Positions 9,282-38,632 are shown, numbered from the stretch's first letter. The stretch: 61,547 nucleotides of DNA from an uncultured virus (IMG/VR IMGVR_UViG_3300010163_001998) (IMGVR_UViG_3300010163_001998), one strand, 5' to 3'. Program-made: numbers and translations. The notes: generated by a model from the sequence alone, not told the origin.

Positions 9282-9935
9282 ATGGCTAATATATTATTAG
9301 ATTTAAATATTAAAAACATAATCATAAAAGGTATAAAATCAGAAGACGATTTAGTCATACCAGTTCTTAGAGATAAGCATGGGTATAATTATGGTAAGTT
9401 AAATCTTAATAATTATAGACAAATAAAATCGTTTTTAGGATTATGTAAAGAATTTATAAGAACAAAAATACAAACAAAACAGTGGAATGACATAAGCGAT
9501 AAAGATATAAAAAATTTTATATTTAATAAACTAATGCTTTTATTTGTTAATGAATCCAGAAAATATGTATTAGGTACAGGGATAATATTACATAGAAGAT
9601 TTATAAATTCAGAAATAATATATGAATTAGATTTGCGATTGCTTGGGCATAATTATACAAAATTCAGTAATAAGTTATTTTTTCAGTTTGAAGGTATACC
9701 AGAATTAGTAAACATACAAGACTTTATGAACATGGTACAAATGACATATGGGAATAGTGAGATGAACACTTATATAATAAGGGTAAATTATATAGATTCC
9801 ATATGGATTAAAAGATATCAAGAAAGTTTTTTAGAAATAGGTATTAAAACAAGACTGGTAACAAATTATAAATACAGACAACGATTAGAGAGATACAAGG
9901 GGTTAAGTAGCATAACACAATATATACATGATTAA
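9282..9935 (+). CDS. Family A paralog
   Basis: IKNIIIK; VNIQDFMNMVQMTY. Confidence 0.8.
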   Translation: MANILLDLNIKNIIIKGIKSEDDLVIPVLRDKHGYNYGKLNLNNYRQIKSFLGLCKEFIRTKIQTKQWNDISDKDIKNFIFNKLMLLFVNESRKYVLGTGIILHRRFINSEIIYELDLRLLGHNYTKFSNKLFFQFEGIPELVNIQDFMNMVQMTYGNSEMNTYIIRVNYIDSIWIKRYQESFLEIGIKTRLVTNYKYRQRLERYKGLSSITQYIHD

Positions 9936-9964
9936 ATTATGTAATTTTAAGGAAAAGGTATAAC

Positions 9965-10453
9965 ATGCATTTAGACAGTATAAATATTACATCTAAGAAA
10001 TTAAATAAGACAATTCAATTAAGCATGAAAAGTAACTGGGAAGAAATTAATAAAATTTTAGCCAATTCAGGTATGATAAATGAGCCTTTAAAAAGAGTAG
10101 GTAACAGTTCTATAACACTATTTCGTTATCAAATATGGGGTATGGGTATAATACCTATAAGATATGGTAGCATACCAGTTTTAATAAATAACAAATACCA
10201 TAAAACAACAAGCGATAAAATAGAAATCATAATATATAAAAAAGTATTTGATGGTTTAGTGGAATTTGAGTACAATGACACTAAAGTAAATGTATATGAT
10301 TTTTACACTTTATTAAAGACACTCTTTGATAAAAAAGAATCTGAATTAGATTCTATAGAAGCGTATGAATTATTTGATAATGCAGCAATAATAATATATG
10401 ATATATCAGATACAACAATAGACATACAAATAATAAGATGGTTAAGTAAATAA
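9965..10453 (+). CDS. Family A paralog
   Basis: LDSINI; VNVYDFYTLLKTLF. Confidence 0.75.
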   Translation: MHLDSINITSKKLNKTIQLSMKSNWEEINKILANSGMINEPLKRVGNSSITLFRYQIWGMGIIPIRYGSIPVLINNKYHKTTSDKIEIIIYKKVFDGLVEFEYNDTKVNVYDFYTLLKTLFDKKESELDSIEAYELFDNAAIIIYDISDTTIDIQIIRWLSK

Positions 10454-10477
10454 TAAAAAGCATAAGGTTAAATAAAA

Positions 10478-11005
10478 GTGAACATATCAAATAGCATAGA
10501 TTCAATAATATTAAACATTGGAAAAAATAAGGAAGCACAAGTAATACTTAAACTAGACAATTTATTAAATGCATTAAGCATAATAGAGCAAGTAAAAAAA
10601 CTAAAAAGCAAGTTTAACAAATATTATATAGCTGTAGCTGAAGGATTTGGCAGAGATAAAGTTAAAAGAATATATGTGATACCAAACAAATTTGTAAATG
10701 CTAATATTGCTATAAATGAAACATTAGGTAATTATGTAGCAATAATTATACTTGACACTCAATTAGATAAAGTTAAAGATAGGGTACAAATAAAGTTCAT
10801 TGACAATAGCATAATAAATGTAGAGGATTACATAAGAATAATAAGTATAACCAACACATTTATTAAAACGAAAGAACAGTATGAAAGTTATTATATGGAT
10901 AGCACTCAATTAGTGCATAATAAAAATGTGAATATGCAATTGATTAGGAGTCATATTAAAGAAAACATAGCTGATTTATACATAAGAATAGATTTTAAAC
11001 AATAA
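10478..11005 (+). CDS. Family A paralog
   Basis: IDSIILNI; INVEDYIRIISIT. Confidence 0.75.
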   Translation: MNISNSIDSIILNIGKNKEAQVILKLDNLLNALSIIEQVKKLKSKFNKYYIAVAEGFGRDKVKRIYVIPNKFVNANIAINETLGNYVAIIILDTQLDKVKDRVQIKFIDNSIINVEDYIRIISITNTFIKTKEQYESYYMDSTQLVHNKNVNMQLIRSHIKENIADLYIRIDFKQ

Positions 11006-11028
11006 AACATCATAAAGGAGAAAAAGAC

Positions 11029-11226
11029 ATGAAAAAAGAATCAAAATCAGTAATTATAGCAGCATTATTAGCCCTTGTGGTATGCACAGCATATTTAGTG
11101 AGAAACATCATTGATTATAAGCAAAGACTTTGGGAATTAAAGAATAAATTTAAGAAAAGAAAATATACACAGGTATCAAAAAAGCCATTGGAAAGAAATT
11201 ATATAACACTCAGGAGCAATAATTAG
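11029..11226 (+). CDS. Small single-TM basic protein
   Basis: AAGGAG RBS; TM segment VIIAALLALVVCTAYLV; Lys/Arg-rich tail. Confidence 0.7.
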   Translation: MKKESKSVIIAALLALVVCTAYLVRNIIDYKQRLWELKNKFKKRKYTQVSKKPLERNYITLRSNN

Positions 11227-11228
11227 AC

Positions 11229-11528
11229 ATGAGGCAGACAGAGATATCATATATAACAGTAAAATCAATAGAGGAAAATAAAATAGCAACTAATATAGAG
11301 ATATACAAAGAAAAAATGTGGACAGTAACAGCGGATATATCAAGAGATGGCATAAACTTTTACATAAGTAAAGAAAATATTTGCTATAACCAGCCAGTAA
11401 TAATAGACATAAATAAAAACAACGAGCTTGTCTTTAAATGTATGGATAAAAACATAGTAATTCCTTATGCGATACAAACAAAATTGACAAGAACACTCAG
11501 AAATTACCTTATAATACGTGGATATTAA
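11229..11528 (+). CDS. Hypothetical protein
   Basis: 99-aa ORF 2 nt after the previous stop, followed by a hairpin. Confidence 0.7.
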   Translation: MRQTEISYITVKSIEENKIATNIEIYKEKMWTVTADISRDGINFYISKENICYNQPVIIDINKNNELVFKCMDKNIVIPYAIQTKLTRTLRNYLIIRGY

Positions 11529-11642: not shown

Positions 11643-12296
11643 ATGAGTGAAAAGATTAGCATAACAAGCATGAGCATTGAGGATAAAGAAATAACATGCA
11701 AGTTTGATATATACAATTCAATGAATGACTCAACATATATAATAGATTGCTTAAATCAACAAAACAGACGTTATGCACTTTATATTGATAGATTAAACAA
11801 TAAATACAGAACAGGTAAAATGAAAGGATTTGACAGAGACAGTTTTGATTTCTTAAGATTACATATGTTTTATAAAAGTGTACATAGCAGATTCCATGTG
11901 AGCGATTTAATATCTGATAAAATTGCATTGGAAATTCAACAAAACGTATTAACAATTAAGGCAACATCAATAGATGAACTTGAAAAAATAACGTTATTAA
12001 ATAAACTTAAAGAGACTACAAACTTAAAGAGTTTATGCACACTTATTCAAATGACATATGATGAAATAGATGTAAGTTTTGCATATAACAAAATAAGAAA
12101 AGCATATGATATAACCGATTTAATCACAGATTATAGAGTAATAGTATTGCTTACTGAAGGCAATAGAGTTATGGTACAATTATATCATAAAGATTATGTT
12201 TACCCAGCAGAAGATACTGATGCATATAGAAAATACGAAAATGCTTTAGGACCTGTATTAGATGCAACATTTGTATATTTATCATTAGTAATATAA
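11643..12296 (+). CDS. Family A paralog
   Basis: TNLKSLCTLIQMTY. Confidence 0.75.
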   Translation: MSEKISITSMSIEDKEITCKFDIYNSMNDSTYIIDCLNQQNRRYALYIDRLNNKYRTGKMKGFDRDSFDFLRLHMFYKSVHSRFHVSDLISDKIALEIQQNVLTIKATSIDELEKITLLNKLKETTNLKSLCTLIQMTYDEIDVSFAYNKIRKAYDITDLITDYRVIVLLTEGNRVMVQLYHKDYVYPAEDTDAYRKYENALGPVLDATFVYLSLVI

Positions 12297-12320: not shown

Positions 12321-12776
12321 ATGTACATAAAAACATTAATAATAAAAGGTAAGCATTTTAATATATACCCATTCAATAAAGAAAAATTGATTAAAGAATT
12401 TAAAGATAAATTAAAATTAGTTGTGTCAACGTTTTGGTATGAACAAACAAATTTATCTGAGAAGAGCAAAACATGGTTTTATAAAGAAAAGACATTGGAA
12501 ATAGGTGTAACATTTAATTCATTAATAATAGACATAAGAACCATAAAAGATGCAGTAGAGGTTAAAGATGTAAATGGAGAAATCATTCATCTAAGCGAAC
12601 TAGTAAGCATAGCAAAAATGTCAGTAAAAGATAAACACAATATAAAAGTCATAGTGTATGAATGTAAAAACTACACCATAGTATATAATTACGTATGTCC
12701 TAAGTTTGATCCTAATGACTATACAGAACAGCTAATATTTTATTATAGAGGCAGACCGGCATTCGGTTTAAAATAA
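12321..12776 (+). CDS. Family A paralog
   Basis: MYIKTLIIK; IHLSELVSIAKMS. Confidence 0.78.
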   Translation: MYIKTLIIKGKHFNIYPFNKEKLIKEFKDKLKLVVSTFWYEQTNLSEKSKTWFYKEKTLEIGVTFNSLIIDIRTIKDAVEVKDVNGEIIHLSELVSIAKMSVKDKHNIKVIVYECKNYTIVYNYVCPKFDPNDYTEQLIFYYRGRPAFGLK

Positions 12777-12795: not shown

Positions 12796-13251
12796 ATGGA
12801 CATAGTGATAGACTTAAATAAAAAGAGTTACATCTGGCTACCAACAAATGAAAATGATGGAACAATCCATAACATTATGAAAAATCAATATAGTATGAAA
12901 GAATCCATTTTATTACCTAATCATGATGTAATAGCACATGGAATGATAATAGAAAAATTAACAGAGACAAATCCTGGTATGGCTTATAGAGTAACATTTA
13001 TTAAACCATTATTTACTAAAGAATATTTTGATAATTTTATAAGAATAAAAATAGATGATTCAAATACATTAACAAAATTTAGTGATTTTATAAAAGTCAT
13101 AAGAATGACATATGAACCATACTTTGATCATAGATTTAAGACATACTTAATAAATTATAACATTGACAATAAGATTTTAGAAGTAAAATATGTTAAAGGG
13201 AAAACAGATAAAGAATATAGGCTGTTTAAGATAGCAATAATTAACAAATAA
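12796..13251 (+). CDS. Family A paralog
   Basis: IVIDL; KFSDFIKVIRMTY. Confidence 0.8.
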   Translation: MDIVIDLNKKSYIWLPTNENDGTIHNIMKNQYSMKESILLPNHDVIAHGMIIEKLTETNPGMAYRVTFIKPLFTKEYFDNFIRIKIDDSNTLTKFSDFIKVIRMTYEPYFDHRFKTYLINYNIDNKILEVKYVKGKTDKEYRLFKIAIINK

Positions 13252-13281: not shown

Positions 13282-13755
13282 ATGCAAATATCAAAGATTA
13301 AAATACATAATGATAATAATAAAGATGACTATATAATTGATTTAAAAAAGAAAAATATGAGTTATGAATTATACAAACAAGTAATGCCACTTAGCATAAT
13401 GACTTATGCACATGGAATGCACTTAATAGGTAATGGTATTACAGTAATGTTCAATACTCAAAGGAGTATGCTTATAACATTTAAAAATGAAGCGTCATAT
13501 AACAATGTAGAAATAAAATTAATGCATCAAAAAGAATACATAAAGTTTAGTGACTTTATTGCATTAGTAAAAATGTCTACAACTTGTAAATCAAGTTTAC
13601 CATTTAATGATGACACTAAAGAATATACTGTTAACAATAAATCAGGTAAGATAGAAAGCACTATTACAGTAATAACAATACCATCGCCATTATATAACAA
13701 TGAATATATATGCCGTGGATTGGAGATACAATTAGCACATGCATATTGGATTTAA
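13282..13755 (+). CDS. Family A paralog
   Basis: ISKIKI...IIDL; IKFSDFIALVKMS. Confidence 0.8.
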   Translation: MQISKIKIHNDNNKDDYIIDLKKKNMSYELYKQVMPLSIMTYAHGMHLIGNGITVMFNTQRSMLITFKNEASYNNVEIKLMHQKEYIKFSDFIALVKMSTTCKSSLPFNDDTKEYTVNNKSGKIESTITVITIPSPLYNNEYICRGLEIQLAHAYWI

Positions 13756-14254
13756 GACAGCTGATGATAAAGTAATGACTGTAGAAATATCAGATGACAT
13801 TAAAACATTAAGAGATAATTTTTTACATGCAATACTTAAGCATAAAAAAGAAATAAAACGTATAAAAATATATAAAAGGCAAGCAGTACAGATACCATAT
13901 TATTTAGACTTAAAACTTGGAGAAATTAGTGATACAATAGATTTTTATATACAACAATCAAAAGCACATATAAGATTAGCTGATGCAATAACCATAGATT
14001 TTATGGATATACACAGAGGTAGGATATATGATGTTACAAATAACGAACACACAAGCAATATGTTTATAGGAATGCAAAAAGATATAGGACTAATCCCTCT
14101 TAATATATTTTTAGATATAGGATATATGACACATAAAGTATTTATTTTTAAAAATAATAAGCATATAATAATAACACAAAAACATACACAAATAGTTACT
14201 ACATTCGATTTAGAGAAGAGTCTTCTAACCAGAATAGATGTAATGAAAATATGA
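13739..14254 (+). CDS. Family A paralog
   Basis: IPLNIFLDIGYMTH. Confidence 0.72.
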   Translation: MHIGFKTADDKVMTVEISDDIKTLRDNFLHAILKHKKEIKRIKIYKRQAVQIPYYLDLKLGEISDTIDFYIQQSKAHIRLADAITIDFMDIHRGRIYDVTNNEHTSNMFIGMQKDIGLIPLNIFLDIGYMTHKVFIFKNNKHIIITQKHTQIVTTFDLEKSLLTRIDVMKI

Positions 14255-14754
14255 ATAAGATGCAATTGAAAATAATCATAGATAATAATGAAGAATTAAA
14301 TATTGAATTAAATTCAGACATATCAAAAGAAATAAATAAGATAATAAGTTGGTGCATAGCAAAGAAAGATAAAAAAGAAACTAACAAAAATCTTCGTATA
14401 GACATAATGAATAAGGAGCAGTATACAAGCTGTTACTATGTGTCGTACAAAAATGGATTAATAATACATGTGGACAACTTTGTTAATAATATATACATAT
14501 TATTAAGTATACCAACTAACATAAAATCAATATTTATTAGGATAGACAAAGATTCAGATTATATTTCATTTAAAGAATTCATAAATATGGTAAGTATGAC
14601 ATATGAGTGTATATATAAGCGTGAAAATTTAATGATACAGAAGTATTACATAGTAAATTGTAATTATAACAATTTAATCATAAGTTATACCAAGAAAATA
14701 GATGCTAATAAATGGAAGTTTCATGGTATATCAATAAAAGGGAAAGAAAAATAA
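14251..14754 (+). CDS. Family A paralog
   Basis: ISFKEFINMVSMTY; ATGA overlap. Confidence 0.8.
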   Translation: MNKMQLKIIIDNNEELNIELNSDISKEINKIISWCIAKKDKKETNKNLRIDIMNKEQYTSCYYVSYKNGLIIHVDNFVNNIYILLSIPTNIKSIFIRIDKDSDYISFKEFINMVSMTYECIYKRENLMIQKYYIVNCNYNNLIISYTKKIDANKWKFHGISIKGKEK

Positions 14755-14757
14755 ATT

Positions 14758-15258
14758 ATGAAAATACAAGAAATAAAAATAATAATAAACCGTAAGAAAG
14801 AATACATAACATTGGACTTAACTCAATTATTAGAATATGCAATATGGAACCTAAATAAAGTTGCAATGGATAATACAAAAGATTTTGAATTATCGACTGA
14901 TGTATTTAGCAGCATATATGTAAACTACTCAGGTATTTATATAAGATACTCAGGTTTAAAAATTAGCTATAATATTACTATACCACATATAGCAATTATG
15001 ATGAATGAAATCAAAGATGTTAAAAAAGCTAAAATATTTATCAAGACAGATGATACCCCAGAATACATAGAATTAAGTGAGTTTTTAACATTGTTAAAAA
15101 CAATATACACATTTAATTCATACAAAGGTACATCTAATGAATCAAAGTGGATAACAATAGATAAAATAAATGACTGGGAAATTAAATTTGAATACACTAA
15201 AGAATATAATGATGACAAACTTAACTTCTGGGGTATAACAATTACAAGGTGGGCTTAG
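14758..15258 (+). CDS. Family A paralog
   Basis: IQEIKI...ITLDL; IELSEFLTLLKTIY. Confidence 0.8.
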   Translation: MKIQEIKIIINRKKEYITLDLTQLLEYAIWNLNKVAMDNTKDFELSTDVFSSIYVNYSGIYIRYSGLKISYNITIPHIAIMMNEIKDVKKAKIFIKTDDTPEYIELSEFLTLLKTIYTFNSYKGTSNESKWITIDKINDWEIKFEYTKEYNDDKLNFWGITITRWA

Positions 15259-15261: not shown

Positions 15262-15726
15262 ATGACAGATTTTGTGGAGAAAATAGTTATAAGATTTGAT
15301 AACAACAAGAGTTTTGAATTTGACTTAAGTAAAGATTTAAGCTCAGAAATTGTAAGCTTAAACAATAGTATTACAAATAATCAAATGGGTAAAAAAGAAG
15401 AATGCTTTATATTTCTTCACAAAAACATACTTATGACATTGAATCCAATAAAACCATGCTTAGAAATGAATTTCATACTGTTAAACATTGAAAATTATAA
15501 AGATAACATAAAAATAAAGGTAAAAGATGTTGATGAAAGTATAGACATTGAAGATTTTGTATTATTAGTAAAAGCTAATGGGGATTGCAATGTAGACACA
15601 GAGATAGTCAATAAAGAAACAAGAATAAATATTTACATAAAGGTTTATGATAAAATGTTAAAATTAGGGGAAGAATATAGTAAAGAAGAAGGGATATACA
15701 AGGTATGCACATTAAAAGTATATTAA
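15262..15726 (+). CDS. Family A paralog
   Basis: VEKIVI...FEFDL; IDIEDFVLLVKAN. Confidence 0.8.
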   Translation: MTDFVEKIVIRFDNNKSFEFDLSKDLSSEIVSLNNSITNNQMGKKEECFIFLHKNILMTLNPIKPCLEMNFILLNIENYKDNIKIKVKDVDESIDIEDFVLLVKANGDCNVDTEIVNKETRINIYIKVYDKMLKLGEEYSKEEGIYKVCTLKVY

Positions 15727-16316
15727 TACCTATAAATAAAAAAGAAAAATTAAAGATAGATTTAAACTGTTTAGTAGATGAGACAATTCAAAATTTAGAC
15801 AGACAGATATATAATCTAAAGGATCATATAATAAATTCACAATTAACAACTATAACTACCACGGAAGCATATATAAGCAGAGTAATTAGGTTTAATACAG
15901 CAAGTATATATAATAGATATTATATAGAATGCGCTAATATGATTCTATATACTAATAATTTGCATAAAAATATAAGATTATTATTTACAGTACACAATAG
16001 TTGTACTATTAGTGGTAATGTTATTGGCATTATAAAAGATTACAAAACAGAAAAGGACATATTTAAGCTTAAATTTGATATAAATAAGCAATTTAAAAGA
16101 ATATTAATAATATTAGATACCAATGAAATTGTAAAATTACAAGATTTAATATACATGATAAAAATGTCATATGAACCACTTTTAATGGGAAACGGTTTAA
16201 AAAAGTATGGATTACATATAAATGATAGAGTATATATGGGAATAACATTTACTAGTAATAAATTACATGAAATTTCATTATACCCGCAATTGTACCCGCA
16301 TATGGAGGTACTCTAA
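15705..16316 (+). CDS. Family A paralog
   Basis: IKSILI...LKIDL; VKLQDLIYMIKMSY. Confidence 0.8.
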   Translation: MHIKSILIPINKKEKLKIDLNCLVDETIQNLDRQIYNLKDHIINSQLTTITTTEAYISRVIRFNTASIYNRYYIECANMILYTNNLHKNIRLLFTVHNSCTISGNVIGIIKDYKTEKDIFKLKFDINKQFKRILIILDTNEIVKLQDLIYMIKMSYEPLLMGNGLKKYGLHINDRVYMGITFTSNKLHEISLYPQLYPHMEVL

Positions 16317-16317
16317 A

Positions 16318-16803
16318 ATGGTAATAAACAAGCTACTCATAAAATTAAAAGAAACGGATCCAGTAATATTTGATTTAACAAGCCAAGATAAGTTTTTAGA
16401 ATCATTAAATAATTTTTCAAAAAACTTGCAACAATTTAAGCTTGGAGCAAAAGATAAAACAACAAAAGACTTTGACTTTATAGATTCAGAAATGAGCATT
16501 CATGAGAATCCACAGACAAGTATAGTTGAAATAGGTTTATGGTATGGAATTACAATTGGACAACTTTTTATACAGTGTAAAAATGATGATAATTACACTG
16601 ATCTATATGATAGTTTACCAATAATAAGAATGACATACCCAATAAATGATTACTTTAATAGTGCAGTAAGTTTATTAAGCAACACATATAAAAACTGGGG
16701 CAAGGATGAATTTAAATGTATAAGAGTAGAATCAAAAAATAGAAAAGCAATAAACCTAATAATACATGAAGATGGTGTAATATATACAGTCATAGTATCA
16801 TAA
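16318..16803 (+). CDS. Family A paralog
   Basis: Start moved to ATG 16318 after GGAGG; INKLLI...VIFDL; DLYDSLPIIRMTY. Confidence 0.78.
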   Translation: MVINKLLIKLKETDPVIFDLTSQDKFLESLNNFSKNLQQFKLGAKDKTTKDFDFIDSEMSIHENPQTSIVEIGLWYGITIGQLFIQCKNDDNYTDLYDSLPIIRMTYPINDYFNSAVSLLSNTYKNWGKDEFKCIRVESKNRKAINLIIHEDGVIYTVIVS

Positions 16804-21054: not shown

Positions 21055-21055
21055 A

Positions 21056-29680: not shown

Positions 29681-29701
29681 AAACTGAAAAAAGTAGATAA
29701 A

Positions 29702-29743: not shown

Positions 29744-29756
29744 AATATTATATGAG

Positions 29757-30341: not shown

Positions 30342-30431
30342 ATATCAAAACATATAAAATATACACCTTTGTATATCAACACAAAATTATTAAAATTTTT
30401 TGTATTTACTATAATAATTAATAAGACATGT

Positions 30432-30920
30432 ATGAAAATGTGGTTTAAACAAATAGACATAAATATTAGTGATAAAGAAAAAATAAGTATGAAAGTAGGC
30501 CGTGATTATAAATGGAGTCCTGCCTTAACCAGAGTATTGTATAAAGATATATTGAGGCATAAAAATGCAGCAAGAATAGTATTTAATACTAGTATAATAA
30601 ACATACCCGACAATTACAATTTAGATGACATTAAAGACCATGGGAATTTTTTAATACAGTGTGGAAAATATAGTATAATGTTAAATACAGTAATATCACC
30701 AGATATTATTATAGATAAACAAACCATGGATATGCAACCTAATATAATAGAACTGGTTACAGATGAGGATACTAGAATAAACATAAGAGATTTGTACTAC
30801 ATAGTAATAACTAGTTGTAATAAGATTGAATCAGGATGTAATTGTTTTTATGAATATAATAATATATACATAAGTAATTTTACATATAACAAGGAAATTG
30901 TTATAAGATTAAAATGGTAA
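30432..30920 (+). CDS. Family A paralog (triplet 1, gene a)
   Basis: MWFKQIDINISDKEKI; INIRDLYYIVITSC. Confidence 0.78.
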   Translation: MKMWFKQIDINISDKEKISMKVGRDYKWSPALTRVLYKDILRHKNAARIVFNTSIINIPDNYNLDDIKDHGNFLIQCGKYSIMLNTVISPDIIIDKQTMDMQPNIIELVTDEDTRINIRDLYYIVITSCNKIESGCNCFYEYNNIYISNFTYNKEIVIRLKW

Positions 30921-30930: not shown

Positions 30931-31377
30931 ATGAAAATCAATTGTCCAGAAATAGATTACATTAGCATAAGAAATAAAGCCAATGCAGAAGCAAAAATAG
31001 ACTTAACAAGATTAGAACTTGCTAATAGTAGCATAGAAAATATAGGTACACAAATTGAAAATAAGATAATTGATAGAGCAATAGCAATATCAGATACGCC
31101 ACATTTAGAAATAGTTATATACTATAATATAAATGTAATATTAATGGAGATTGATCAAAGTAAATTAAATGAATACAATAAATTGATAAAAATACATTAC
31201 AAGTCAGGAGAGATTATAAATATAGAAGACTTTTTGCATATGATGTTTATGAATTATACACCCATTATTAAATATAAAAAATCAATATATAAACTGTATC
31301 CGAATGAGTGTTGCTATATAGAAATAGATGTGCATAAATATGATACAGTGATAAGTATATCACTTAACAATTATTGA
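30931..31377 (+). CDS. Family A paralog (triplet 1, gene b)
   Basis: NCPEIDYI; INIEDFLHMMFMNY. Confidence 0.8.
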   Translation: MKINCPEIDYISIRNKANAEAKIDLTRLELANSSIENIGTQIENKIIDRAIAISDTPHLEIVIYYNINVILMEIDQSKLNEYNKLIKIHYKSGEIINIEDFLHMMFMNYTPIIKYKKSIYKLYPNECCYIEIDVHKYDTVISISLNNY

Positions 31378-31396
31378 ATTGACAGGTAAACAAAGC

Positions 31397-31882
31397 ATGA
31401 ACAATATAGCAGTTAATCAAGTAACAATCACCATAGATAATGGGGAAACAATAGTAGTAAATCTAGATGATCCTGATATTATACATAATGTATCTAAACA
31501 ATTAGATAGTAATAGTGATTTGATAAGAAAAATGTTATATAGTGAAGGAGTTGACAACATAGATGCCTGGTACTTTTCAGTGAATAAAAATTGCCCTATT
31601 AATATTAGTACATTAGGTGTAGTATCATTAAAATTTGAAGCTTCTGGTATTAATAAATATGGGGACAAAATAAATATAACATTAAACAATAATGGAACCT
31701 TAGAAACATTAAATTTATATGACTTATATCATATGATGCTAATAACAGCAACCCATGAAAAAAGAGGAAGCTACAGTATATACAATATTGGTGCAATAGA
31801 GTTTAGAACATATAAAAACGGATTATGTATGTATTTCTTTAATCAAAAGCAATTGAAACAAAAGCTAGAAAGCAGTTTATGA
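31397..31882 (+). CDS. Family A paralog (triplet 1, gene c)
   Basis: VNQVTI...VNLDDP; LNLYDLYHMMLITA. Confidence 0.8.
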   Translation: MNNIAVNQVTITIDNGETIVVNLDDPDIIHNVSKQLDSNSDLIRKMLYSEGVDNIDAWYFSVNKNCPINISTLGVVSLKFEASGINKYGDKINITLNNNGTLETLNLYDLYHMMLITATHEKRGSYSIYNIGAIEFRTYKNGLCMYFFNQKQLKQKLESSL

Positions 31883-31977: not shown

Positions 31978-32487
31978 ATGTACTTTAAACAAATGGATAT
32001 AAACATCAACGATAAAGAAAAAATAAGCTTTGGATTAGCTTATACATATAGTAAATATTGTAAAAGAAATAGAATACTATATAATTGTATAATGAAATAT
32101 AGGGATACAATAAAACTTGTAGATTATACTAATGAATCAGCCATACCAAATAATTACAGCTTAAAAAATTTTAATCAGGAATATAGAAAATTTTTGATAC
32201 ATTGTGAAAAATGCAATGTATATCTAAATGCAGTAGGAACACCAGTAATAATCATAGCAAGCAAGAGTTTAGATATACAACCTAATATAATAGAAGTAGT
32301 TACAAATGATAATATTAGAATGAATATAAGGGATTTATATTACACTATAATAGCTAGTTGTGACAAAGTTGAGTCAGATTTTGGCTATATGTATACATAT
32401 AGCAATATATTTATAAGTAGACTTTTAAATAGTGACAATATTTTTATAACGTTAGAGGATGAGGAAGAAGTATTATGTCACATATAA
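31978..32487 (+). CDS. Family A paralog (triplet 2, gene a)
   Basis: MYFKQMDININDKEKI; MNIRDLYYTIIASC. Confidence 0.8.
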   Translation: MYFKQMDININDKEKISFGLAYTYSKYCKRNRILYNCIMKYRDTIKLVDYTNESAIPNNYSLKNFNQEYRKFLIHCEKCNVYLNAVGTPVIIIASKSLDIQPNIIEVVTNDNIRMNIRDLYYTIIASCDKVESDFGYMYTYSNIFISRLLNSDNIFITLEDEEEVLCHI

Positions 32488-32963
32488 GTGCATTAAAGGC
32501 AACTCCAAAAGTTAATTGTCCAGAAATAGATTACATTATTTTAAAAAATAAATGCAGTATGGGAGTAAAAATATTAATAGAAAATATAATGAATACAACT
32601 GCAAGTAATTTAGAAAGTTTGGGGATGCAAACTAGAAGTGGGCTTTTTATAAAAACAATAGATATATTGGACACACCTAGTATAGAAATAGTATTATATG
32701 CGTATGTACAATCAATAACAATACGAATTGACAAAAATAAATTAAGCGAATACAATGAATTAATAAAAGTACATTATAAAACAACAGGATTCATAAATAT
32801 AGAAGATTTTTTACATATGGCATTTATGAATTACACACCTGATATTGAGTATAAGAAATCAAGTTATTTGTTATTTCCAAGTAAAAAAGGTGCTATACAA
32901 ATAGACATATATAAAGACAGTACAATATTGGACTTAGCACTCATTGATTTTAATAAGTGGTAG
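32475..32963 (+). CDS. Family A paralog (triplet 2, gene b)
   Basis: NCPEIDYI; INIEDFLHMAFMNY. Confidence 0.8.
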   Translation: MSHISALKATPKVNCPEIDYIILKNKCSMGVKILIENIMNTTASNLESLGMQTRSGLFIKTIDILDTPSIEIVLYAYVQSITIRIDKNKLSEYNELIKVHYKTTGFINIEDFLHMAFMNYTPDIEYKKSSYLLFPSKKGAIQIDIYKDSTILDLALIDFNKW

Positions 32964-32967
32964 AAAT

Positions 32968-33456
32968 ATGAATAATATAATAGTTAATCAAGTAAAAATC
33001 ATTATGGATAATAAAGAAACATTATTAATAAACTTAGATGACCCTAATATCATTGGTAATGTATCTAAGCAATTAAACAATAATAATTTAATAAAAAAGG
33101 TGCTAAGCAATCAGAATGATGATGGTTCAATTGAAGATACATGGTATTTTGAAGTGAATAGAGACTACCCTATTAAAGTCAGTACATTTGGTGTAGTATC
33201 ATTGGCATTTGAGACTTTTAGTATTAATAAATATGGAGACAAGATAAGTGTAACATTAAACAATAATGGAACTTTAGAGACATTAAGTCTATATGAGTTA
33301 TATTATATGTTACTTATGACAGCAGACCATAGAATTAGAAAAGGGTACAGTATATATGATATAGGTGTTGTAAAGTTTACAACACATAAATATGATGGCT
33401 CGATTTTATATTTTTATAATCAAAGGCAATTAAAACAAAGACAGTTGGATAAGTAA
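32968..33456 (+). CDS. Family A paralog (triplet 2, gene c)
   Basis: VNQVKI...INLDDP; LSLYELYYMLLMTA. Confidence 0.8.
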   Translation: MNNIIVNQVKIIMDNKETLLINLDDPNIIGNVSKQLNNNNLIKKVLSNQNDDGSIEDTWYFEVNRDYPIKVSTFGVVSLAFETFSINKYGDKISVTLNNNGTLETLSLYELYYMLLMTADHRIRKGYSIYDIGVVKFTTHKYDGSILYFYNQRQLKQRQLDK

Positions 33457-33561: not shown

Positions 33562-34272
33562 ATGGCATTAACTGATAAAGATTTGCAGAACATTATATCT
33601 GAATTATCAGAAGGGGAACAAAGGGCACTTTTAGAAAAACTGAAGGATAAATTTGATACTGATAGAAAAGCTAAGCCAGTACATTCAGAAACACCAGTCC
33701 AAAGAACTGATGGAAAATCATACAGTTGCACTGTATGTGGTTCAATAAATTGTAAAAAGCATGGTACAACTGCTTCTGGTATGCAAAGGTATATATGTAA
33801 AAATTGTGGAAAGACATTTTCAGAAAATAATGGGGAGGCTTTAAGATATAGTCATTTATCAGAAGATATTTGGAAAGAAATGATAAGGGGTTTTGTGGAA
33901 GAATCATCATTGGCAACCATAGCCAATAACATAGGATGTTCAACAAAAACTGTATGGCTTGCAAAACAAAAGGTTAACCAAGCCATCATGGCCATATATG
34001 GATATAATGAACTATTCCAAGGCCAGACACAGGCAGATGAATACTATACACGTGCAGCTTTCAAAGGAAAGAGAGACCCAGAATTTTTTATATACACTTT
34101 AAAGCGCATGCCACGGCACCACAGAAATTATGCAGAGAAGGTGGAATGGTTACAAAAAGCAGGTTTATATGAGAAATTGCAAAAAGAATCACCAGATTAT
34201 TTAGAAGAATTATTAGGTAATAACCCTAAAATGAAAAAGGGTATTAATAAATTCAATAGACATACAGATTAA
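33562..34272 (+). mobile_element. IS1595-family transposase, 3'-truncated
   Basis: Zn ribbon CTVCGS...QRYICKNCGKTF, HTH, and first catalytic motif QADEYY. The ORF stops just after KKGI and lacks the rest of the DDE core. No TIRs identified. Confidence 0.8.
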
Positions 34273-34530
34273 ATAATATTATTCTGCAATAATATTATAA
34301 CATCATAATTATATTATCAAAAAAATTTATACATTCTAAAACATACCAATCATATAATCAGTAATCATTTTTATGTAATTCTAAGTATGCTTATAAAGTT
34401 AAATCACAAAACATATAAGCATAAATAATACAATCAACATAAAATTATGTCTAATATACCAAGAAATATAGTATAAAGCAAGCTTACAAATAAAAACTCA
34501 AACACAATTTTATATACTTTTTATTTTAAT

Positions 34531-35571
34531 ATGAAGGCTCACAGTATGTTAGATATTTTAAATAAGGAGTTTGAGAGAGAAATGAAAATAGACATTGTAA
34601 TAAGTAACCCTCCATATCAAGAAACTACTGGTGGTGGTAATAATGGTGGTAAAGTGATATATGATAGTTTTATTTTAAATGGATTAAAAATATCAAATAC
34701 ATTATGTATGATTGTAAAAAACAATTGGATGAACTCAGATTCATTAAAAGATTTAAGACAATCCATATTAAAAAGTGGGTTAAAAACAATAAAAAATTAT
34801 TCTTTACTTGGGAATGTATTTCCAAGTATGGGTATTTCAGCTTCTATCATTTATATTGATAAAAATTACAATGGTAATATCGATTATACAGAGATAGTAA
34901 AAGATAAAGTTGTAAATGAGTACAATGAGGACATCCGAGATATTGGATTCATACCAGCATCTAAATATGAGTATACAATAGTAAAAAAGGTTACAGAAAA
35001 GACAAAGAATTCATTTAATAATTATGTAATAGGAAGTAATCCATTTGGAATAGACACAAATGGGGCCATATCCAATGGATTTATTGATGAAAGTGTAATA
35101 AAAACTGATGAATATAACATAGCATTAAGATATGTGGACAGTGTTTCATATACAAACTTGAATTGTATCACTAAAAATAGAGACATTGTAGATAAATATA
35201 AAATAGTGTGTCCCAAACAAATACATAAAACAAATAATCCTATACCAAGTGTAATAGGATTATTACCAAATCAGATTTGTTCAGGATCCTACAGTTTAAT
35301 GTATTATGATATTGATATGACAAATGCATCCAATGCAGCTAAATATGTTAAGACAAGATATTTTAGATTCCTAGTGTATTGTTTAGCAGATACATTATGT
35401 AGATTAAATTCTTATAGAGTTTCATTGGTACCTGATCAAGATTTCACCAACCAGTCCGATATAGACTGGACACAATCTATAAGCGACATAGATAAACAGT
35501 TATATAAAAAGTACAATCTCAGCGAAGAAGAGATAGACTACATTGAAAAAACAATCAAACCAATGCAATAA
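34531..35571 (+). CDS. Eco57I-like adenine methyltransferase C-terminal half (NPPY + TRD), no SAM-binding motif I; possible start 34582
   Basis: IDIVISNPPYQ, KNNW, YVKTRYFRFLV, VPDQDF, LYKKYNLSEEEIDYIEKTIKPM. Homologous to the C-half of 52682..54643. Confidence 0.8.
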   Translation: MKAHSMLDILNKEFEREMKIDIVISNPPYQETTGGGNNGGKVIYDSFILNGLKISNTLCMIVKNNWMNSDSLKDLRQSILKSGLKTIKNYSLLGNVFPSMGISASIIYIDKNYNGNIDYTEIVKDKVVNEYNEDIRDIGFIPASKYEYTIVKKVTEKTKNSFNNYVIGSNPFGIDTNGAISNGFIDESVIKTDEYNIALRYVDSVSYTNLNCITKNRDIVDKYKIVCPKQIHKTNNPIPSVIGLLPNQICSGSYSLMYYDIDMTNASNAAKYVKTRYFRFLVYCLADTLCRLNSYRVSLVPDQDFTNQSDIDWTQSISDIDKQLYKKYNLSEEEIDYIEKTIKPMQ

Positions 35572-35606: not shown

Positions 35607-35774
35607 TGTAAAAAATTATATAATCATATAATAATGTTATCTACACGTTGCAAACTTAAATAACATCTTATCATACTATTTTATATATTAAGTATATTGC
35701 ATAATTATAACAAGTTTTGAATAAACCAAATACATTGAATTAAAACTAATTTCATTAGATATATGGAGGGACAT

Positions 35775-36251
35775 ATGATAGAACAAATACTACTTCACTT
35801 AGAAAATAATAAAGATATAGTAATAGATTTAAATGATGCTAATTATGTAAGACATACATCAGACCAGTTGGCAAAATTAAAACACACTAGATATATAGCT
35901 ATACCTAAATCATTAAGGTACAGTAGACTTATAACTTATTGTTTGTTAAACAAACATGAAAGATTGAAATTTGTATTAAGTCTGATGAATGGTATTCATG
36001 GTGTTACATTAGATTTTCCTGGAAATATTAAAGATTATAACAACACAGTAAAGTTTAAACTATCAGACAACAATAATAAGGAGTATTTAAATATAGATGA
36101 ACTATGTACACTAATAAGCATGACCTGCATACATAGAGAGTATAAATATGGATGCAATATATATGATTGCGGTAATATCATATTAAGTGTATATAAATTT
36201 GACGAAATAACATTATCAATTAAAACATCTAATACAAAGGAAAACAATTGA
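35775..36251 (+). CDS. Family A paralog
   Basis: Start moved to ATG after GGAGG; IEQILL...IVIDL; LNIDELCTLISMTC. Confidence 0.8.
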   Translation: MIEQILLHLENNKDIVIDLNDANYVRHTSDQLAKLKHTRYIAIPKSLRYSRLITYCLLNKHERLKFVLSLMNGIHGVTLDFPGNIKDYNNTVKFKLSDNNNKEYLNIDELCTLISMTCIHREYKYGCNIYDCGNIILSVYKFDEITLSIKTSNTKENN

Positions 36252-36727
36252 TGATATTAAAAGAAATAAGAATAAAAATAAAGAATACAACTATAATAAT
36301 AAAGATGCATAATACAGGCTTAACTGAGGAAAATGGATTTCAAGAGAATGATTATTTAATAATAAATAGTACATTTGGATTGTATATGGATAAAATAGAA
36401 GATTATTATAAAATGCAAGAAATATTTTCCCATTACAATATGGTATTACAACTTTCCTTTATAAGTAATTCGAGAGTATTTGGTATACGCAGTAAACATT
36501 TAAAAAGATATGGTCATGCAGTAAAATTAATTGTCAGTAATAATCACAACATTACAAATGATAAAGATGACTTTTCAATGGATTTGATAGACTTTTTAAC
36601 ATTATTAAAAATGAGTTATGAAATGGTAAAATGTAGTGATAGTACTTATGAAATTAAGTTTGATCATAATGAAAAATATGAAACAGATATAGCATTTACA
36701 AATAATATGATATACATAACAATATAG
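36248..36727 (+). CDS. Family A paralog
   Basis: LKEIRIKI; MDLIDFLTLLKMSY. Confidence 0.8.
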   Translation: MMILKEIRIKIKNTTIIIKMHNTGLTEENGFQENDYLIINSTFGLYMDKIEDYYKMQEIFSHYNMVLQLSFISNSRVFGIRSKHLKRYGHAVKLIVSNNHNITNDKDDFSMDLIDFLTLLKMSYEMVKCSDSTYEIKFDHNEKYETDIAFTNNMIYITI

Positions 36728-36738
36728 AAGATTAAAGC

Positions 36739-37101
36739 ATGGAAATAAAAGTAAAGCAGTTAACAATAAAGACAAATAATGATTCAGAATTTATAATAGA
36801 CCTTAGAAGAGATAGAAATAACACAGAAAATATTATAATTGATCAATTATTAAATAATAGGAGCATAGAAATTTAAAGGATTTCAAGATATGAAACTATA
36901 GAAAACACTGTAGAAAATATGATGCTACTAAGCATAAATGAAATATCCCAGAATATTATTTTTATACTTAATAGTGAATATATCATACGATTTCATATAT
37001 TTGGGCACAAAATTAATATGGATAACAGTGAGGATTACACCAGTGCAATGATAAGGTTAGATGTAAATAAGATGAAAAATAATTCATGCATAACTGTATG
37101 A
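36739..37101 (+). pseudogene. Decayed Family A paralog
   Basis: MEIKVKQLTIK...FIIDL, in-frame TAA at 36874-36876, then the same frame continues as ORF 36919..37101. The 3' part is disrupted by a 70-bp duplication. Confidence 0.65.
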
Positions 37102-37173
37102 GTATTACACCAGTGCAATGATAAGGTTAGATGTAAATAAGATGAAAAATAATTCATGCATAACTGTATGAGT
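37034..37173. repeat. Perfect 70-bp tandem duplication
   Basis: ATTACACCAGTGCAATG...CTGTATGAGT at 37034-37103 and 37104-37173. Confidence 0.95.
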
Positions 37174-37261
37174 ATAAAGCGATTTAAAAGAACAGAATAT
37201 AAAATATTTTAATGCACAACATAAAATAAACTAGTAATTAAATAGGTGAGGCAAAAAAAGA

Positions 37262-37714
37262 ATGGATATAGATTCAATAATAGTCAGACTAAAAGACAAT
37301 ACAGATTTTAAGATAGACGTTAAGGATTTTAATACACAAGAAGTATTAGCAATGTTAAAGCATAAAGACCAAGAATTGGTATTACCAGATAGGGTGGATA
37401 TTCCTGAAGACTTATATACTGACTTTTGCAAATGTTTATTAAATGATGAACCCTTTATAGCAATGAAGGTTGAAACATTTAATATAATATTATACTTTAA
37501 ATTAGATCAAGCTAAAGAGCATATATACATAGAAGAAAGTAAAAATTTTTTAAATGTAGAAGAGTTTATCAATATAATAAAAATGTCATGCAGTTATAAA
37601 GAAATTTTGGATACTAAAGTTTATAGAATACAATATAAAAAATGTATGATATCATTTAATATAAATAGGTATAACAATATATCACTGTCAATATATGGAG
37701 AGGTTATATTATGA
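37262..37714 (+). CDS. Family A paralog
   Basis: IDSIIVRL...FKIDV; LNVEEFINIIKMSC. Confidence 0.8.
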   Translation: MDIDSIIVRLKDNTDFKIDVKDFNTQEVLAMLKHKDQELVLPDRVDIPEDLYTDFCKCLLNDEPFIAMKVETFNIILYFKLDQAKEHIYIEESKNFLNVEEFINIIKMSCSYKEILDTKVYRIQYKKCMISFNINRYNNISLSIYGEVIL

Positions 37715-38187
37715 ATAATTTAAAGTCATTTACAATTTATAGTAAAGACAAGGAGAAAAGTGTTACAATCAATTTATTTGATAATATAAATACGATATTA
37801 AATATTATGTCTAAAGTGACTAATAGACCCATAGTTAATACAAGTGAGATGATAATAGCATCATGTATGGATTATGCATGTGACATTGTAGTATCTATTT
37901 TAAAAGAGTATGTAGTATATGATGGAAAAAGGAAAGAGAGGCGCAGGTTATTTTGGATAGTAATAGATAATGAAGAGTTAGACAGACTAGAATTGATGAA
38001 TGATGATAATGAGAAGATAGGAATGGATATTGTTTATACATTTATTAAAATGTCATATGAGAAGGAACTTGAAGATTATGACTATATAAAAATGTATGAT
38101 AACATACAAGAGTTTTCTGTATACAATACATTTGAGAAAAAGAATGGTATAAAAATAGCTTTAGCAATAAAATTAGATAAGGAGTAG
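37711..38187 (+). CDS. Family A paralog
   Basis: LKSFTI...VTINL; IGMDIVYTFIKMSY. Confidence 0.8.
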   Translation: MNNLKSFTIYSKDKEKSVTINLFDNINTILNIMSKVTNRPIVNTSEMIIASCMDYACDIVVSILKEYVVYDGKRKERRRLFWIVIDNEELDRLELMNDDNEKIGMDIVYTFIKMSYEKELEDYDYIKMYDNIQEFSVYNTFEKKNGIKIALAIKLDKE

Positions 38188-38194
38188 GTAAAAA

Positions 38195-38632
38195 TTGGGA
38201 AACAATATATTAAAATCCATAGTCTTTTATACTGATATAAATAAGCCATCTAAGAATAATATAAAAATTACATTTGATAATGGAATACATATAACAAATA
38301 TAACAAACAATAAACTTCAAAGATCATTATGCATAGTAGGTTTAAGTTTACATAAAGAGAGTAAATTAGATGAGGTTACGTTCAGATTTTTTATGAGAAG
38401 AGCATCTAATTATGAGATTGAATATGAAGTAAATGACATAACAGAGAAATGCACATTACAAGAGTATTTAAATATGACCAGTATGCTATTGGATATAAAT
38501 AATAAAGAAAATGGCACATACAATATAGAAATGTTTGAAAATATTGAAACGTTGAAGGTATCAAGGTATGTTAATGTATATAAAGATCTAACCATAGTTG
38601 ATTTTGATATAATAGCATATAATAATATTTAA
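38195..38632 (+). CDS. Family A paralog
   Basis: LKSIVFY; CTLQEYLNMTSML. Confidence 0.72.
   Translation: MGNNILKSIVFYTDINKPSKNNIKITFDNGIHITNITNNKLQRSLCIVGLSLHKESKLDEVTFRFFMRRASNYEIEYEVNDITEKCTLQEYLNMTSMLLDINNKENGTYNIEMFENIETLKVSRYVNVYKDLTIVDFDIIAYNNI

Follow-up and report, generated by a model that had tools for sequence, protein, structure and literature searches.

The DNA analyzed here is a 61,547-nucleotide (nt) stretch from an uncultured virus (IMG/VR IMGVR_UViG_3300010163_001998; "the window" below means this whole stretch), which the public gene calls place within a 123,547-bp contig. Between positions 9282 and 38632, multiple profile tests identified a tandem array of one protein family, encoded on the + strand throughout and with ~41 members. 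The family is new, and its predicted fold is apparently unmatched among solved structures. We tentatively propose, from sequence features, that the array is a co-transcribed panel of ~41 cytoplasmic, non-enzymatic binders that rides on a low-GC mobile element and may serve in counter-defense or host takeover. A first-pass annotation made from the sequence alone had described the region as about 43 genes of one hyper-diverged family. That one real family lies here was borne out by leave-one-out profiles, a profile built from outside sequences, profile–profile alignment and a six-frame scan.

All-vs-all phmmer comparison of the + strand open reading frames (ORFs) separated three paralog families in the window, at 2319–7332, 9282–38632 and 43111–47982. 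An iterated hidden Markov model (HMM), started from the connected core of the array family, gathered 33 ORFs, corresponding to 31 genes plus both halves of one split gene. Because self-inclusion inflates profile scores, each gene was rescored with a leave-one-out profile from which it and its close duplicate had been removed, alongside 1000 composition-matched shuffles of family sequences. All 31 genes scored above the best shuffle of their own run (11.0–57.2 bits versus 5.2–16.3), 28 of them at E ≤ 2e-4; the weak three were 20560, 25347 and 36248 (genes are named by their first nucleotide). A second HMM, built solely from 26 foreign proteins, also placed 31/31 genes above its best shuffle (7.9 bits). 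It added 10478 (38.5 bits), 20227, 31978, 21502, 21026, 13739, 30369, 19958 and 11643, and picked up 58069–58836 beyond the array. This second test is not fully independent, as the foreign proteins were retrieved with the window's profile; their sequences are outside data, and the shuffles control for composition. Profile–profile comparison with hhalign gave P values of 3e-8 to 0.067 for 14 further candidate ORFs versus P ≥ 0.10 in 17/17 control ORFs of the window, while two short ORFs, 36919 and 11029 (P = 0.22 and 0.57), did no better than these controls. In the six-frame scan, 41 stop-to-stop family pieces were found on the + strand within 9282–37711, one more outside the array, and none on the − strand.

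These results sort the candidates into 32 solid members, one split member, five probable and four weak ones (9965, 13739, 37711 and 38195), one doubtful (11229) and one N-terminal fragment (36736–36873). A total of ~41, which takes in the two motif-only genes 37711 and 38195, is the better figure, so that the tandem array first described stands while its 43 genes become an upper bound. Similarly, the statement that nearly every ORF in the 29 kb belongs to the family holds for these ~41 members, but the array is not pure, since two blocks of unrelated ORFs (27741–30329 and 33562–35571) are inserted in it. The ORFs of the first block encode a 221-aa (amino acid) Cys-rich protein, a DUF4869-like protein (26.2 bits, below cutoff), a PtuA-like AAA fragment, a 146-aa protein and a HAD phosphatase-like protein. 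The family genes are co-oriented, tightly packed and often overlapping, as had been noted: spacing is mostly 1–30 nt, with longest-ORF starts some dozen junctions overlap, and a Shine-Dalgarno-like 4-mer lies upstream of 30 of the 41 genes. In this DNA of 25% GC, 39–41 ORFs of 145–238 aa stay open on the + strand, and − strand ORFs there reach at most 114 aa. Both halves of the split member were collected by the iterated HMM, the second also by hhalign (P = 1.7e-5). Residues 1–48 of the protein outside the array, 58069–58836, align with the hairpin-helix module found at the N-terminus of the family. This protein could be a member that has diverged and acquired insertions; alternatively, the module could be one that occurs separately.

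In two alignments, one of 31 window members (A1) and one of 58 sequences including outsiders (A3), no column is conserved at ≥90% and most pairs are 10–27% identical. Almost every conserved column is hydrophobic, with an alternating pattern in the strands, as expected of a core; among polar residues, conservation is highest at a Tyr (80%), at the Asp with which the motif helix begins (66%), at an Asn (62%) and at a Thr/Ser. Since conserved columns are hydrophobic and few polar positions are conserved, there is no candidate catalytic set, in agreement with the earlier view that the family lacks an invariant catalytic residue. The middle of the protein, already described as variable, spans 66 to 146 residues between the N-terminal hairpin and the motif helix. 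Isoelectric points (pI) range from 4.6 to 9.7, with 18/41 members acidic and 14/41 basic. A hydropathy scan of the members found no membrane- or signal-like hydrophobic stretch (maximum 19-residue Kyte-Doolittle mean <1.6), consistent with the reported lack of signal peptides.

AlphaFold2 was run on 16820–17299 with the 31-sequence alignment and on 26399–26920 with the 58-sequence alignment, yielding predicted local distance difference test (pLDDT) scores of 75 and 94. The elements come in the same order in both models: a beta-hairpin and a helix are followed by a meander of four to five strands, a short helix and a pair of strands, after which come the motif helix and a beta-meander at the C-terminus. 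The conserved scaffold first read from the sequences is thus recovered in two separately modeled members, and the predicted fold is shared across the family.

We found no characterized domain to which the family could be assigned; such an assignment would, by the first-pass annotation, have refuted its reading. There was no family match in Pfam (hmmscan of 30 members, E ≤ 0.1) or NCBIfam (two members), PADLOC (four members) gave chance-level matches only (LeoB, 14.2 bits; a CARF model, 19.8 bits over part of the protein), and a search of PDB sequences with the A3 profile returned a single match, RevCC, at E = 3.7. The structural comparison suggested with that annotation recovered the same element order in two models but no known relative: Foldseek found nothing at E ≤ 1e-3 in the PDB or among BFVD viral models for either model. 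The best sub-threshold matches were a polo-box (0.29) and LolB (8.7e-3), with TM ~0.2 in both, and the ESM Atlas gave nothing above 0.82 for 16820–17299. We also used a Foldseek-independent structural aligner, for which Z <8 may be chance and unmatched models typically reach Z 7–8. Among ~48,000 chains the best Z was 4.6 for each model, and re-alignment of the Foldseek top 1000 reached Z 5.4 (TagH C-terminal domain). With a confident model and no match above noise, we conclude that there is no recognizable solved analogue.

The weak structural matches nevertheless cluster. Five of the seven best full-PDB matches of the confident model fall in one group, with Z of 4.6 for DUF4309 (4ygt_A, root-mean-square deviation (rmsd) 3.7, 103 aligned), 4.2 and 4.1 for CAP_assoc_N (4h0a_B and 4ifa_A), 4.1 for YfeY (2qzb_B) and 4.0 for PepSY (5boi_A). 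Overall these matches have Z 4.0–4.6 and rmsd 3.7–5.2 Å over 96–108 residues, below the noise guide of Z 8. For the second model, 4ygt and 4h0a were within the top nine, and 4ifa and 2qzb ranked lower at Z 3.1 and 2.9. ECOD merges this group with BLIP and PepSY into a cystatin/monellin group that holds enzyme inhibitors, as set out in PMC11836899. Known members of the BLIP/PepSY/YfeY group (Pfam clan PepSY) are mostly secreted or lipoproteins, in contrast to the array proteins with their lack of a signal peptide, and none of the 30 members matched a PepSY-clan Pfam model at E ≤ 0.1. The Rhs immunity protein RhsI1 ranked first or second for both models (Z 4.6 and 4.2), with the immunity proteins Tsi3 and TplEi also present. 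There were further weak matches by Foldseek to PUR repeats and SsgA/B (E ~0.1) and by VIA to the double-wing domains of MotA and YdcD (Z 2.4–4.1). We take these matches as leads that point to an inhibitor-like binder, not to membership of the group.

We sought relatives of the family outside the window, as had been advised, through an exhaustive profile search of 1.84 billion representative proteins. At E ≤ 1e-3 there were 55 matches: 29 come from the window itself and the other 26 are foreign proteins, the latter at no more than 38% identity. With such numbers the family is extremely lineage-restricted. The matches span 145–238 aa; as the longest has 238 aa, there are no fused forms. The 20 foreign proteins looked up, of 26, are all singletons on contigs of 953–2355 bp. 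Three pairs of them lie on equal-sized contigs (1706, 1332 and 1703 bp), which suggests that the paired proteins are tandem neighbors there too. Individual foreign proteins match particular array genes: P0043 matches 9282 (126 bits versus 37 for the next paralog), P0050 matches 26399 (101 versus 26), to which P0024, P0052 and P0030 are also closest, and P0034, P0035 and P0041 pair with 22991, 18458 and 30931, respectively. The sub-lineages are therefore older than the split of their carriers and have been retained. A word-based search with the 58-sequence alignment returned only three of the window's own proteins, and a keyword search of open-access text found no earlier description of the family or the array. 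A repertoire array of diverged paralogs is a known phenomenon; the family, its apparently unmatched fold and the ~41-copy scale are not.

The array grew by duplication, and its copies are kept. The four youngest pairs share 41–59% aa identity, with synonymous divergence (dS) of 0.75–1.04 and ratios of nonsynonymous to synonymous divergence (dN/dS) of 0.36–0.51. The copies are therefore functional and under purifying but relaxed (or diversifying) selection, not decaying. This agrees with the earlier remark that most genes remain intact despite their divergence, the exceptions being one split gene and one fragment. One of the young pairs, 22991/23577 (E = 3e-36, 41% aa identity, dN/dS 0.51), lies in a 586-nt tandem DNA repeat at 22978/23564, and DNA repeats also reveal a duplicated three-gene cassette of 1.57 kb (30369–31882 versus 31978–33456). 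The nearest paralog of a gene is a median of 6 positions away versus 12.4 expected (permutation p = 0.0065), which, together with these repeats, indicates growth by local duplication. The copies are old and have diverged almost to saturation in surface, charge and middle segment. Beyond the recent duplicates, only short DNA blocks are shared, of 25 nt over the motif in four genes and of 44 nt in three; among the direct repeats there were no intergenic recombination sites like those of integrons or acquired interbacterial defense (AID) clusters.

The boundaries of the array are operon-like. The best promoter-like site in 9000–28900 lies at 9216–9244, although counts of sigma-70 promoters are not above those in shuffles in this AT-rich DNA, and a terminator-like hairpin (38630–38680) begins at the stop codon of the last array gene. 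Only one terminator-like site occurs inside 9000–28900. A promoter-like start, a terminator-like end and one internal terminator-like site fit one or few long transcripts (Table 1).

Table 1 Members of the array, its insertions and bordering sites, and the distant family-like protein. Scores are in bits: LOO, leave-one-out profile; FO, HMM built solely from foreign proteins; CP, combined-profile HMM; hh P, hhalign P value; AF2, AlphaFold2; pTM, predicted TM score.
Coordinates	Strand	Feature	Support and remarks
9216..9244	+	promoter-like site	TTGCCA-17-TATAAT with TG, 11/12 matches, just 5' of first array gene; suggestive only
9282..9935	+	member, 217 aa, solid	LOO 32.4; FO 40.8
9965..10453	+	member, 162 aa, weak	hh P=0.0024 at motif register; CP 13.0
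10478..11005	+	member, 175 aa, solid	FO 38.5; hhalign probability 95%, P=3e-8
11229..11528	+	doubtful short member or remnant, 99 aa	hh P=0.067 only; no HMM finds it
11643..12296	+	member, 217 aa, probable	CP 19.1; FO 9.0; hh P=0.0016
12321..12776	+	member, 151 aa, solid	LOO 18.3; FO 12.6
12796..13251	+	member, 151 aa, solid	LOO 25.3; FO 25.4
13282..13755	+	member, 157 aa, solid	LOO 26.6; FO 35.3
13739..14254	+	member, 171 aa, weak	FO 10.7 vs best shuffle 7.9; hh P=0.04
14251..14754	+	member, 167 aa, solid	LOO 35.7; FO 35.9
14758..15258	+	member, 166 aa, solid	LOO 29.9; FO 23.1
15262..15726	+	member, 154 aa, solid	LOO 34.1; FO 43.8
15705..16316	+	member, 203 aa, solid	LOO 20.7; FO 36.3
16267..16803	+	member, solid	LOO 26.4; FO 18.3; public gene call: start 16318, 161 aa
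16820..17299	+	member, 159 aa, solid, first sequence of A1	LOO 57.2; AF2 pLDDT 75.2, pTM 0.71
17305..17853	+	member, 182 aa, solid	LOO 25.1; FO 30.1
18458..19027	+	member, 189 aa, solid	LOO 36.0; FO 48.8
19069..19785	+	member, 238 aa, solid	LOO 30.5; FO 36.8
19958..20535	+	split member, two overlapping frames	19958-20236 N-terminal part, 20227-20535 motif part; FO 9.9 and 19.8
20560..21054	+	member, 164 aa, solid, weakly scoring	LOO 13.6 vs best shuffle 8.5; FO 14.3
21026..21523	+	member, 165 aa, probable	CP 19.5; FO 11.4; hh P=3.6e-4
21502..22035	+	member, 177 aa, probable	FO 12.9; hh P=0.0011
22037..22474	+	member, 145 aa, solid	LOO 25.4 vs best shuffle 16.1; FO 13.4
22480..22989	+	member, 169 aa, solid	LOO 29.7; FO 42.1
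22991..23548	+	member, 185 aa, solid, young tandem duplicate of 23577	LOO 29.7
23577..24143	+	member, 188 aa, solid	LOO 31.7; FO 45.4
24163..24666	+	member, 167 aa, solid	LOO 31.4; FO 40.4
24656..25219	+	member, 187 aa, solid, most basic (pI 9.7)	LOO 32.5; FO 48.9
25347..25946	+	member, 199 aa, solid, weak in LOO	LOO 13.5 vs best shuffle 8.3; FO 25.7
25900..26385	+	member, 161 aa, solid	LOO 30.3; FO 29.4
26399..26920	+	member, 173 aa, solid, first sequence of A3, best model	FO 79.4; AF2 pLDDT 94.3, pTM 0.89
27027..27578	+	member, 183 aa, solid, most acidic (pI 4.6)	LOO 22.9; FO 25.8
27741..30329	+	unrelated insertion, five ORFs	hh P>=0.10 vs family; GC 0.295 vs ~0.25 around
30369..30920	+	member, 183 aa, probable, cassette gene 1	FO 10.6; hh P=1.4e-4 over 126 columns; paralog of 31978, E=1e-38
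30931..31377	+	member, 148 aa, solid, cassette gene 2	LOO 34.1; paralog of 32475, E=4.5e-43
31379..31882	+	member, 167 aa, solid, cassette gene 3	LOO 33.6; paralog of 32944, E=2e-60; dN/dS 0.36
31978..32487	+	member, 169 aa, probable, starts second cassette copy	FO 18.0; hh P=7.7e-4; DNA repeats ~1.57 kb apart
32475..32963	+	member, 162 aa, solid	LOO 22.5; FO 42.3
32944..33456	+	member, 170 aa, solid	LOO 34.7; FO 41.4
33562..35571	+	unrelated insertion: IS1/IS1595-type transposase N-terminal piece and methyltransferase piece	NF050000 49.4 bits; Eco57I / Type II methyltransferase match
35763..36251	+	member, 162 aa, solid	LOO 38.2; FO 42.3
36248..36727	+	member, 159 aa, solid, weak in LOO	LOO 11.0 vs best shuffle 9.7; FO 17.4
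36736..36873	+	pseudogene fragment, N-terminal module only, 46 codons	19.4 bits, profile positions 6-47
37262..37714	+	member, 150 aa, solid	LOO 31.2 vs best shuffle 16.3; FO 36.0
37711..38187	+	member, 158 aa, weak	hh P=0.006 at motif register; motif ...TFIKMSYE...; no HMM finds it
38195..38632	+	member, 145 aa, weak, last array gene	hh P=0.01; loose motif ...EYLNMTSM...
38630..38680	+	terminator-like hairpin and U-run	-18.5 kcal/mol, z=-4.8, 0/200 shuffles fold as well
58069..58836	+	distant family-like protein outside array, 255 aa	FO 15.7; six-frame scan 16.2; hh P=6e-6, residues 1-48

We considered what kind of DNA carries the array. The window has a GC content of 23–33%, is purine-rich on the + strand and has essentially all of its long ORFs there; no tRNA or Rfam family was found in it. 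The order of genes after the 43111–47982 family is a conserved 412-aa protein, a UvrD/PcrA-like helicase, methyltransferases, AbiEi/AbiEii and more unknowns. The gene for the 412-aa protein lies directly 5' of the helicase (48339–52077), and the pair is kept in four other loci (L120, L121, L122 and L202). Hundreds of relatives of the helicase, mostly unnamed and ~50–70% identical, many of them with inteins, occur on contigs of up to 720,900 bp. Two 90% clusters of it lie on similar-sized contigs, of 279–313 kb (seven members) and 335–373 kb (five), and these recurrent sizes look like complete replicons of huge phages or megaplasmids. A close locus, L122 (from a 245,760-bp contig, GC 28.6%), shares with the window the repeat-rich region, the coiled-coil and 412-aa genes and the helicase; in the more distant L121, ParA-like and secretion-ATPase genes follow the helicase. 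Together with iterons, orphan methyltransferases, AbiE, and fragments of insertion sequences and defense genes, the surroundings look mobile. We regard a mobile or extrachromosomal element (phage or plasmid) as the rather probable carrier, with a chromosomal island taking up the remaining probability.

Searches of public collections returned few close relatives of this DNA. There was no near-identical DNA for 9282–33000 in phage and plasmid collections (megablast), no match to the 412-aa gene in phages and plasmids (tblastn), no match to the helicase above 25% identity in the phage collection, and no close relative in an IMG/VR subset, whether the query was a family member, the helicase or its alignment. 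In GTDB, a scan with the helicase alignment gave, among the matches listed, one close locus (L001, on a 3.6-kb contig), and the representatives gave, again among the matches listed, two to three short contigs of one metagenome-assembled genome (MAG) labeled Lachnospiraceae. In a phylum sample of 401 genomes that included this MAG, a close helicase was present only in the same MAG, on two short contigs, and the A1 profile found no family member in it. The Lak megaphages, which are described in PMC8346664 as ~476–660 kb long, of 26–31% GC and reading TAG as sense, fit in GC content and in size, but the window gives no sign of TAG recoding. Coding hardly increases when TAG or TGA is treated as a sense codon (for TAG, 0.824 becomes 0.852, with no notable gene fusions), and the standard genetic code fits.

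The first-pass reading of the array as a repertoire (anti-defense or host-takeover binders, orphan immunity proteins or specificity adaptors) is supported in its structural half; how the array might work we infer from these observations. A large low-GC mobile or extrachromosomal element, either a huge phage or a megaplasmid, would carry the genes for one rigid alpha+beta scaffold, predicted to run from an N-terminal beta-hairpin through a helix, an antiparallel sheet in the center and the [DE]Fxx[ILV]xK[ML][TS]Y helix to a C-terminal beta-meander. On this scaffold the hydrophobic core would be kept while surface residues, charge and the 66–146-residue middle were diversified, such that each paralog could bind and block, stoichiometrically, one variant of a host-side protein. 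The element would express the whole panel at once, and the panel would have grown by local duplication, both tandem and segmental, in the course of an arms race, as a 'genomic accordion'. It is possible, but no better than that, that amplification of a previously unseen fold has in this way produced the largest repertoire array of a single family known from a prokaryotic mobile element, a germline 'antibody-like' panel of ~41 inhibitors that would each be specific for another variant of an opposing defense or toxin protein. We lean slightly toward counter-defense because of the extreme lineage restriction, the two neighboring expanded families, the replicon-like relatives, and an analogous, non-homologous array in a RaK2-like jumbo phage. 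In that phage a 24-kb locus (record 155825–180280) holds nine co-oriented small paralogs of their own diverged family, with no function assigned. Homology between the two arrays was rejected: hhalign of the nine-member against the 57-sequence alignment gave a probability of 0.4% (P = 0.16) and cross-HMM scores were ≤8.7 bits, so that a tblastn match to RaK2 (E = 0.01) is due to chance.

Several observations weigh against a counter-defense panel on such an element. Scans with Pfam, PHROGs and NCBIfam found no phage structural, conjugation or integrase gene in the 61.5 kb. The window's AbiE and PtuA-like fragment fit a cellular or plasmid island as well as a phage. L122 continues after the helicase with Lgt, CheW, a radical-SAM enzyme, a cation-efflux protein and RNase H, and has no family member in 23 kb. 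All structural matches are below the aligner's noise guide (Z ≤ 5.4). Finally, to our knowledge, known anti-defense loci combine several distinct families and do not repeat a single family 40 times.

A lesser, though still real, possibility is an orphan 'poly-immunity' array in which each paralog neutralizes one variant of a competitor's polymorphic toxin, expanded to 41 copies. The members are, as this would have it, small, cytoplasmic, non-enzymatic, tandem, same-strand and highly diverged; they are embedded among defense genes and mobile-DNA fragments, their structural leads include RhsI1, Tsi3, TplEi and the BLIP/PepSY/YfeY inhibitor group, and the 25-nt block over the motif could support recombination. 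It also has the best published precedents. The T7SS (type VII secretion system) immunity strings in Bacillota (esaG (DUF600), tipC and tsaI) are non-identical tandem paralogs that resemble the array in consisting of same-strand copies of one small cytoplasmic protein, in arising by duplication/recombination and in forming a repertoire against polymorphic toxins, as PMC9484751 describes. There are twelve esaG in RN6390, compared with ~41 copies here, and esaG paralogs share long, highly similar blocks, whereas array pairs are mostly 10–27% identical. Up to six SUKH genes lie in tandem, an arrangement interpreted as immunity against toxins of non-self origin, and both these and herpesviral US22 arrays comprise strongly diverged paralogs, as alternative versions of one component under diversity selection, which occur in bacteria and were recruited by large DNA viruses (PMC3113570). 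In contrast to these systems, the array family has no match to DUF600, SMI1_KNR4, SUKH-3/4/5/6 or any other Pfam immunity family (30 members, E ≤ 0.1), and it is predicted to be beta-rich, with no significant PDB match. Nor did Pfam, PHROGs, PADLOC and NCBIfam scans of 30 non-family ORFs of the window find a toxin or trafficking domain, a secretion system (T7SS included), an LXG, WXG, Rhs, CDI or EsaD-like toxin gene, or, as a sign of SUKH, linkage to a nuclease, deaminase or other polymorphic toxin gene. With ~41 copies, the array is more than three times the largest immunity array that we found in the literature. Immunity families directed against circulating toxins are usually widespread and horizontally shared, and for this reason the near absence of the family from 1.84e9 representative proteins sits badly with such a role. 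Plasmid leading-region anti-defense islands are likewise co-oriented panels of small neutralizing proteins on mobile elements. AID clusters, another precedent, are mobile-element-borne, co-oriented panels of small neutralizing proteins in gut bacteria (10.1101/471110; 10.1101/2025.05.03.651265). Both differ from the array in being mixtures of unrelated families, some of them recombinase-associated, whereas the array is one family, with no recombinase, relaxase or oriT recognized.

Other readings fare less well. It is unlikely that the paralogs act together, as a heteromeric assembly or as nucleic-acid-binding/regulatory factors (PUR/Whirly-like or MotA double-wing-like). A three-gene cassette was duplicated as a unit, the array adjoins an iteron-rich region, and there are the weak PUR, SsgA/B, MotA and YdcD matches, but these are all sub-threshold, a pI spread of 4.6–9.7 with 18 acidic members argues against nucleic-acid binding, and the fluid copy number and content (a split gene, a fragment, insertions, recent duplications) are unlike assemblies of fixed stoichiometry. 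Quite improbable, too, are defense-side specificity modules, that is, interchangeable sensors or decoys for phage proteins that feed a neighboring effector (an AAA ATPase or an AbiE-type protein). The diversified surfaces on a fixed scaffold would suit them, as would the PtuA-like AAA fragment at 28759, AbiEi/AbiEii, a PDC-S14-like domain and methyltransferases in or near the array. However, no intact effector is consistently adjacent, the ATPase-like ORF being a 147-aa fragment within an insertion whose GC differs, the four members scanned match no PADLOC model, and no sensor-effector fusions occur among the 55 matches. We consider it very improbable that the array has no function, whether as a compositional artefact of Ile/Lys/Asn-rich ORFs, which the first-pass annotation had named as what would overturn it, or as decaying selfish duplicates. 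Very low GC (0.24–0.27) and the low identity of most pairs could give rise to such a pattern, but every member beats the composition-matched shuffles of its own run (max 16.3 bits), an outside-only profile finds members, 39–41 ORFs stay open, dN/dS is below 1 and the fold prediction is confident.

The counter-defense or host-takeover panel that we favor would have wider implications. Tandem arrays of diverged paralogs are rare in prokaryotes, and where they are understood (esaG, SUKH, viral multigene families) they mark arms races. If every copy neutralizes a target of its own, nature has supplied in this array a catalogue of inhibitor-target pairs, which would give access to unknown defense or toxin systems of an unsampled low-GC gut lineage and provide a library built on a compact, highly evolvable binder scaffold. 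It would also represent 'genomic accordion' expansion at this scale outside eukaryotic viruses, and prokaryotes would have their own equivalent of the multigene families found in large DNA viruses of eukaryotes.

Downstream of the array lies a 2.2-kb non-coding, strongly G-skewed region (38633–40859). It contains three 44-nt repeats (38686–39004) and iteron-like repeats of 20 nt (TAGAGGGCTGTTATTAACAA, x4.6, at 39250–39340) and 10 nt (AAAATAGTAG, x5, at 39161–39211). The corresponding position in L122 (~1600–5800), upstream of its coiled-coil homologue, is occupied by perfect 20–22-nt tandem repeats. This region is possibly a replication or partition site, judging from its repeats; neither GC skew nor gene strand switches across it. 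Long tandem repeats also occur in other non-coding stretches, at 37029–37175 (70 nt x2.1, 98%) and 60725–60946 (102 nt x2.2, 98%). The gene that follows the iteron region (40860–42137) encodes a 425-aa protein with a C-terminal coiled coil and weak similarity to L122:5907–6749 (E = 2.7e-13). Its public record lists a precomputed PF27881, which our Pfam scan did not return, and a word-based search with its N-terminal part found only itself. For the ORF just upstream of the array (7923–9182), a PDB sequence search gave no match and the ESM Atlas nothing usable.

The array is flanked by the two other expanded families. The six ORFs at 43111–47982 (180–307 aa, pairwise E 1e-17 to 1e-37) matched nothing in Pfam, NCBIfam or PADLOC, and had one weak PHROGs match, to phrog_1065 (unknown function, E = 5e-4). 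The six-gene family at 2319–7332 (E 1e-6 to 1e-77) comprises four ORFs of ~270 aa (2319, 3119, 5652 and 6520) plus 3953–4228 and 4840–5259, and for one member the similarity to inosine-uridine nucleoside hydrolase falls short of the threshold (29.6 bits versus a cutoff of 34.2). Among the defense-type genes, the AbiEi antitoxin/AbiEii nucleotidyltransferase toxin pair at 55520–56963 scored 77.7 and 230 bits in PADLOC, with 103.5 bits for Pfam AbiEii. The 653-aa Eco57I-type methyltransferase at 52682–54643 matches the candidate defense family PDC-S14 at its N-terminus, and part of it is paralogous (E = 1e-56) to a 346-aa methyltransferase-like ORF that lies within the array, at 34531–35571.

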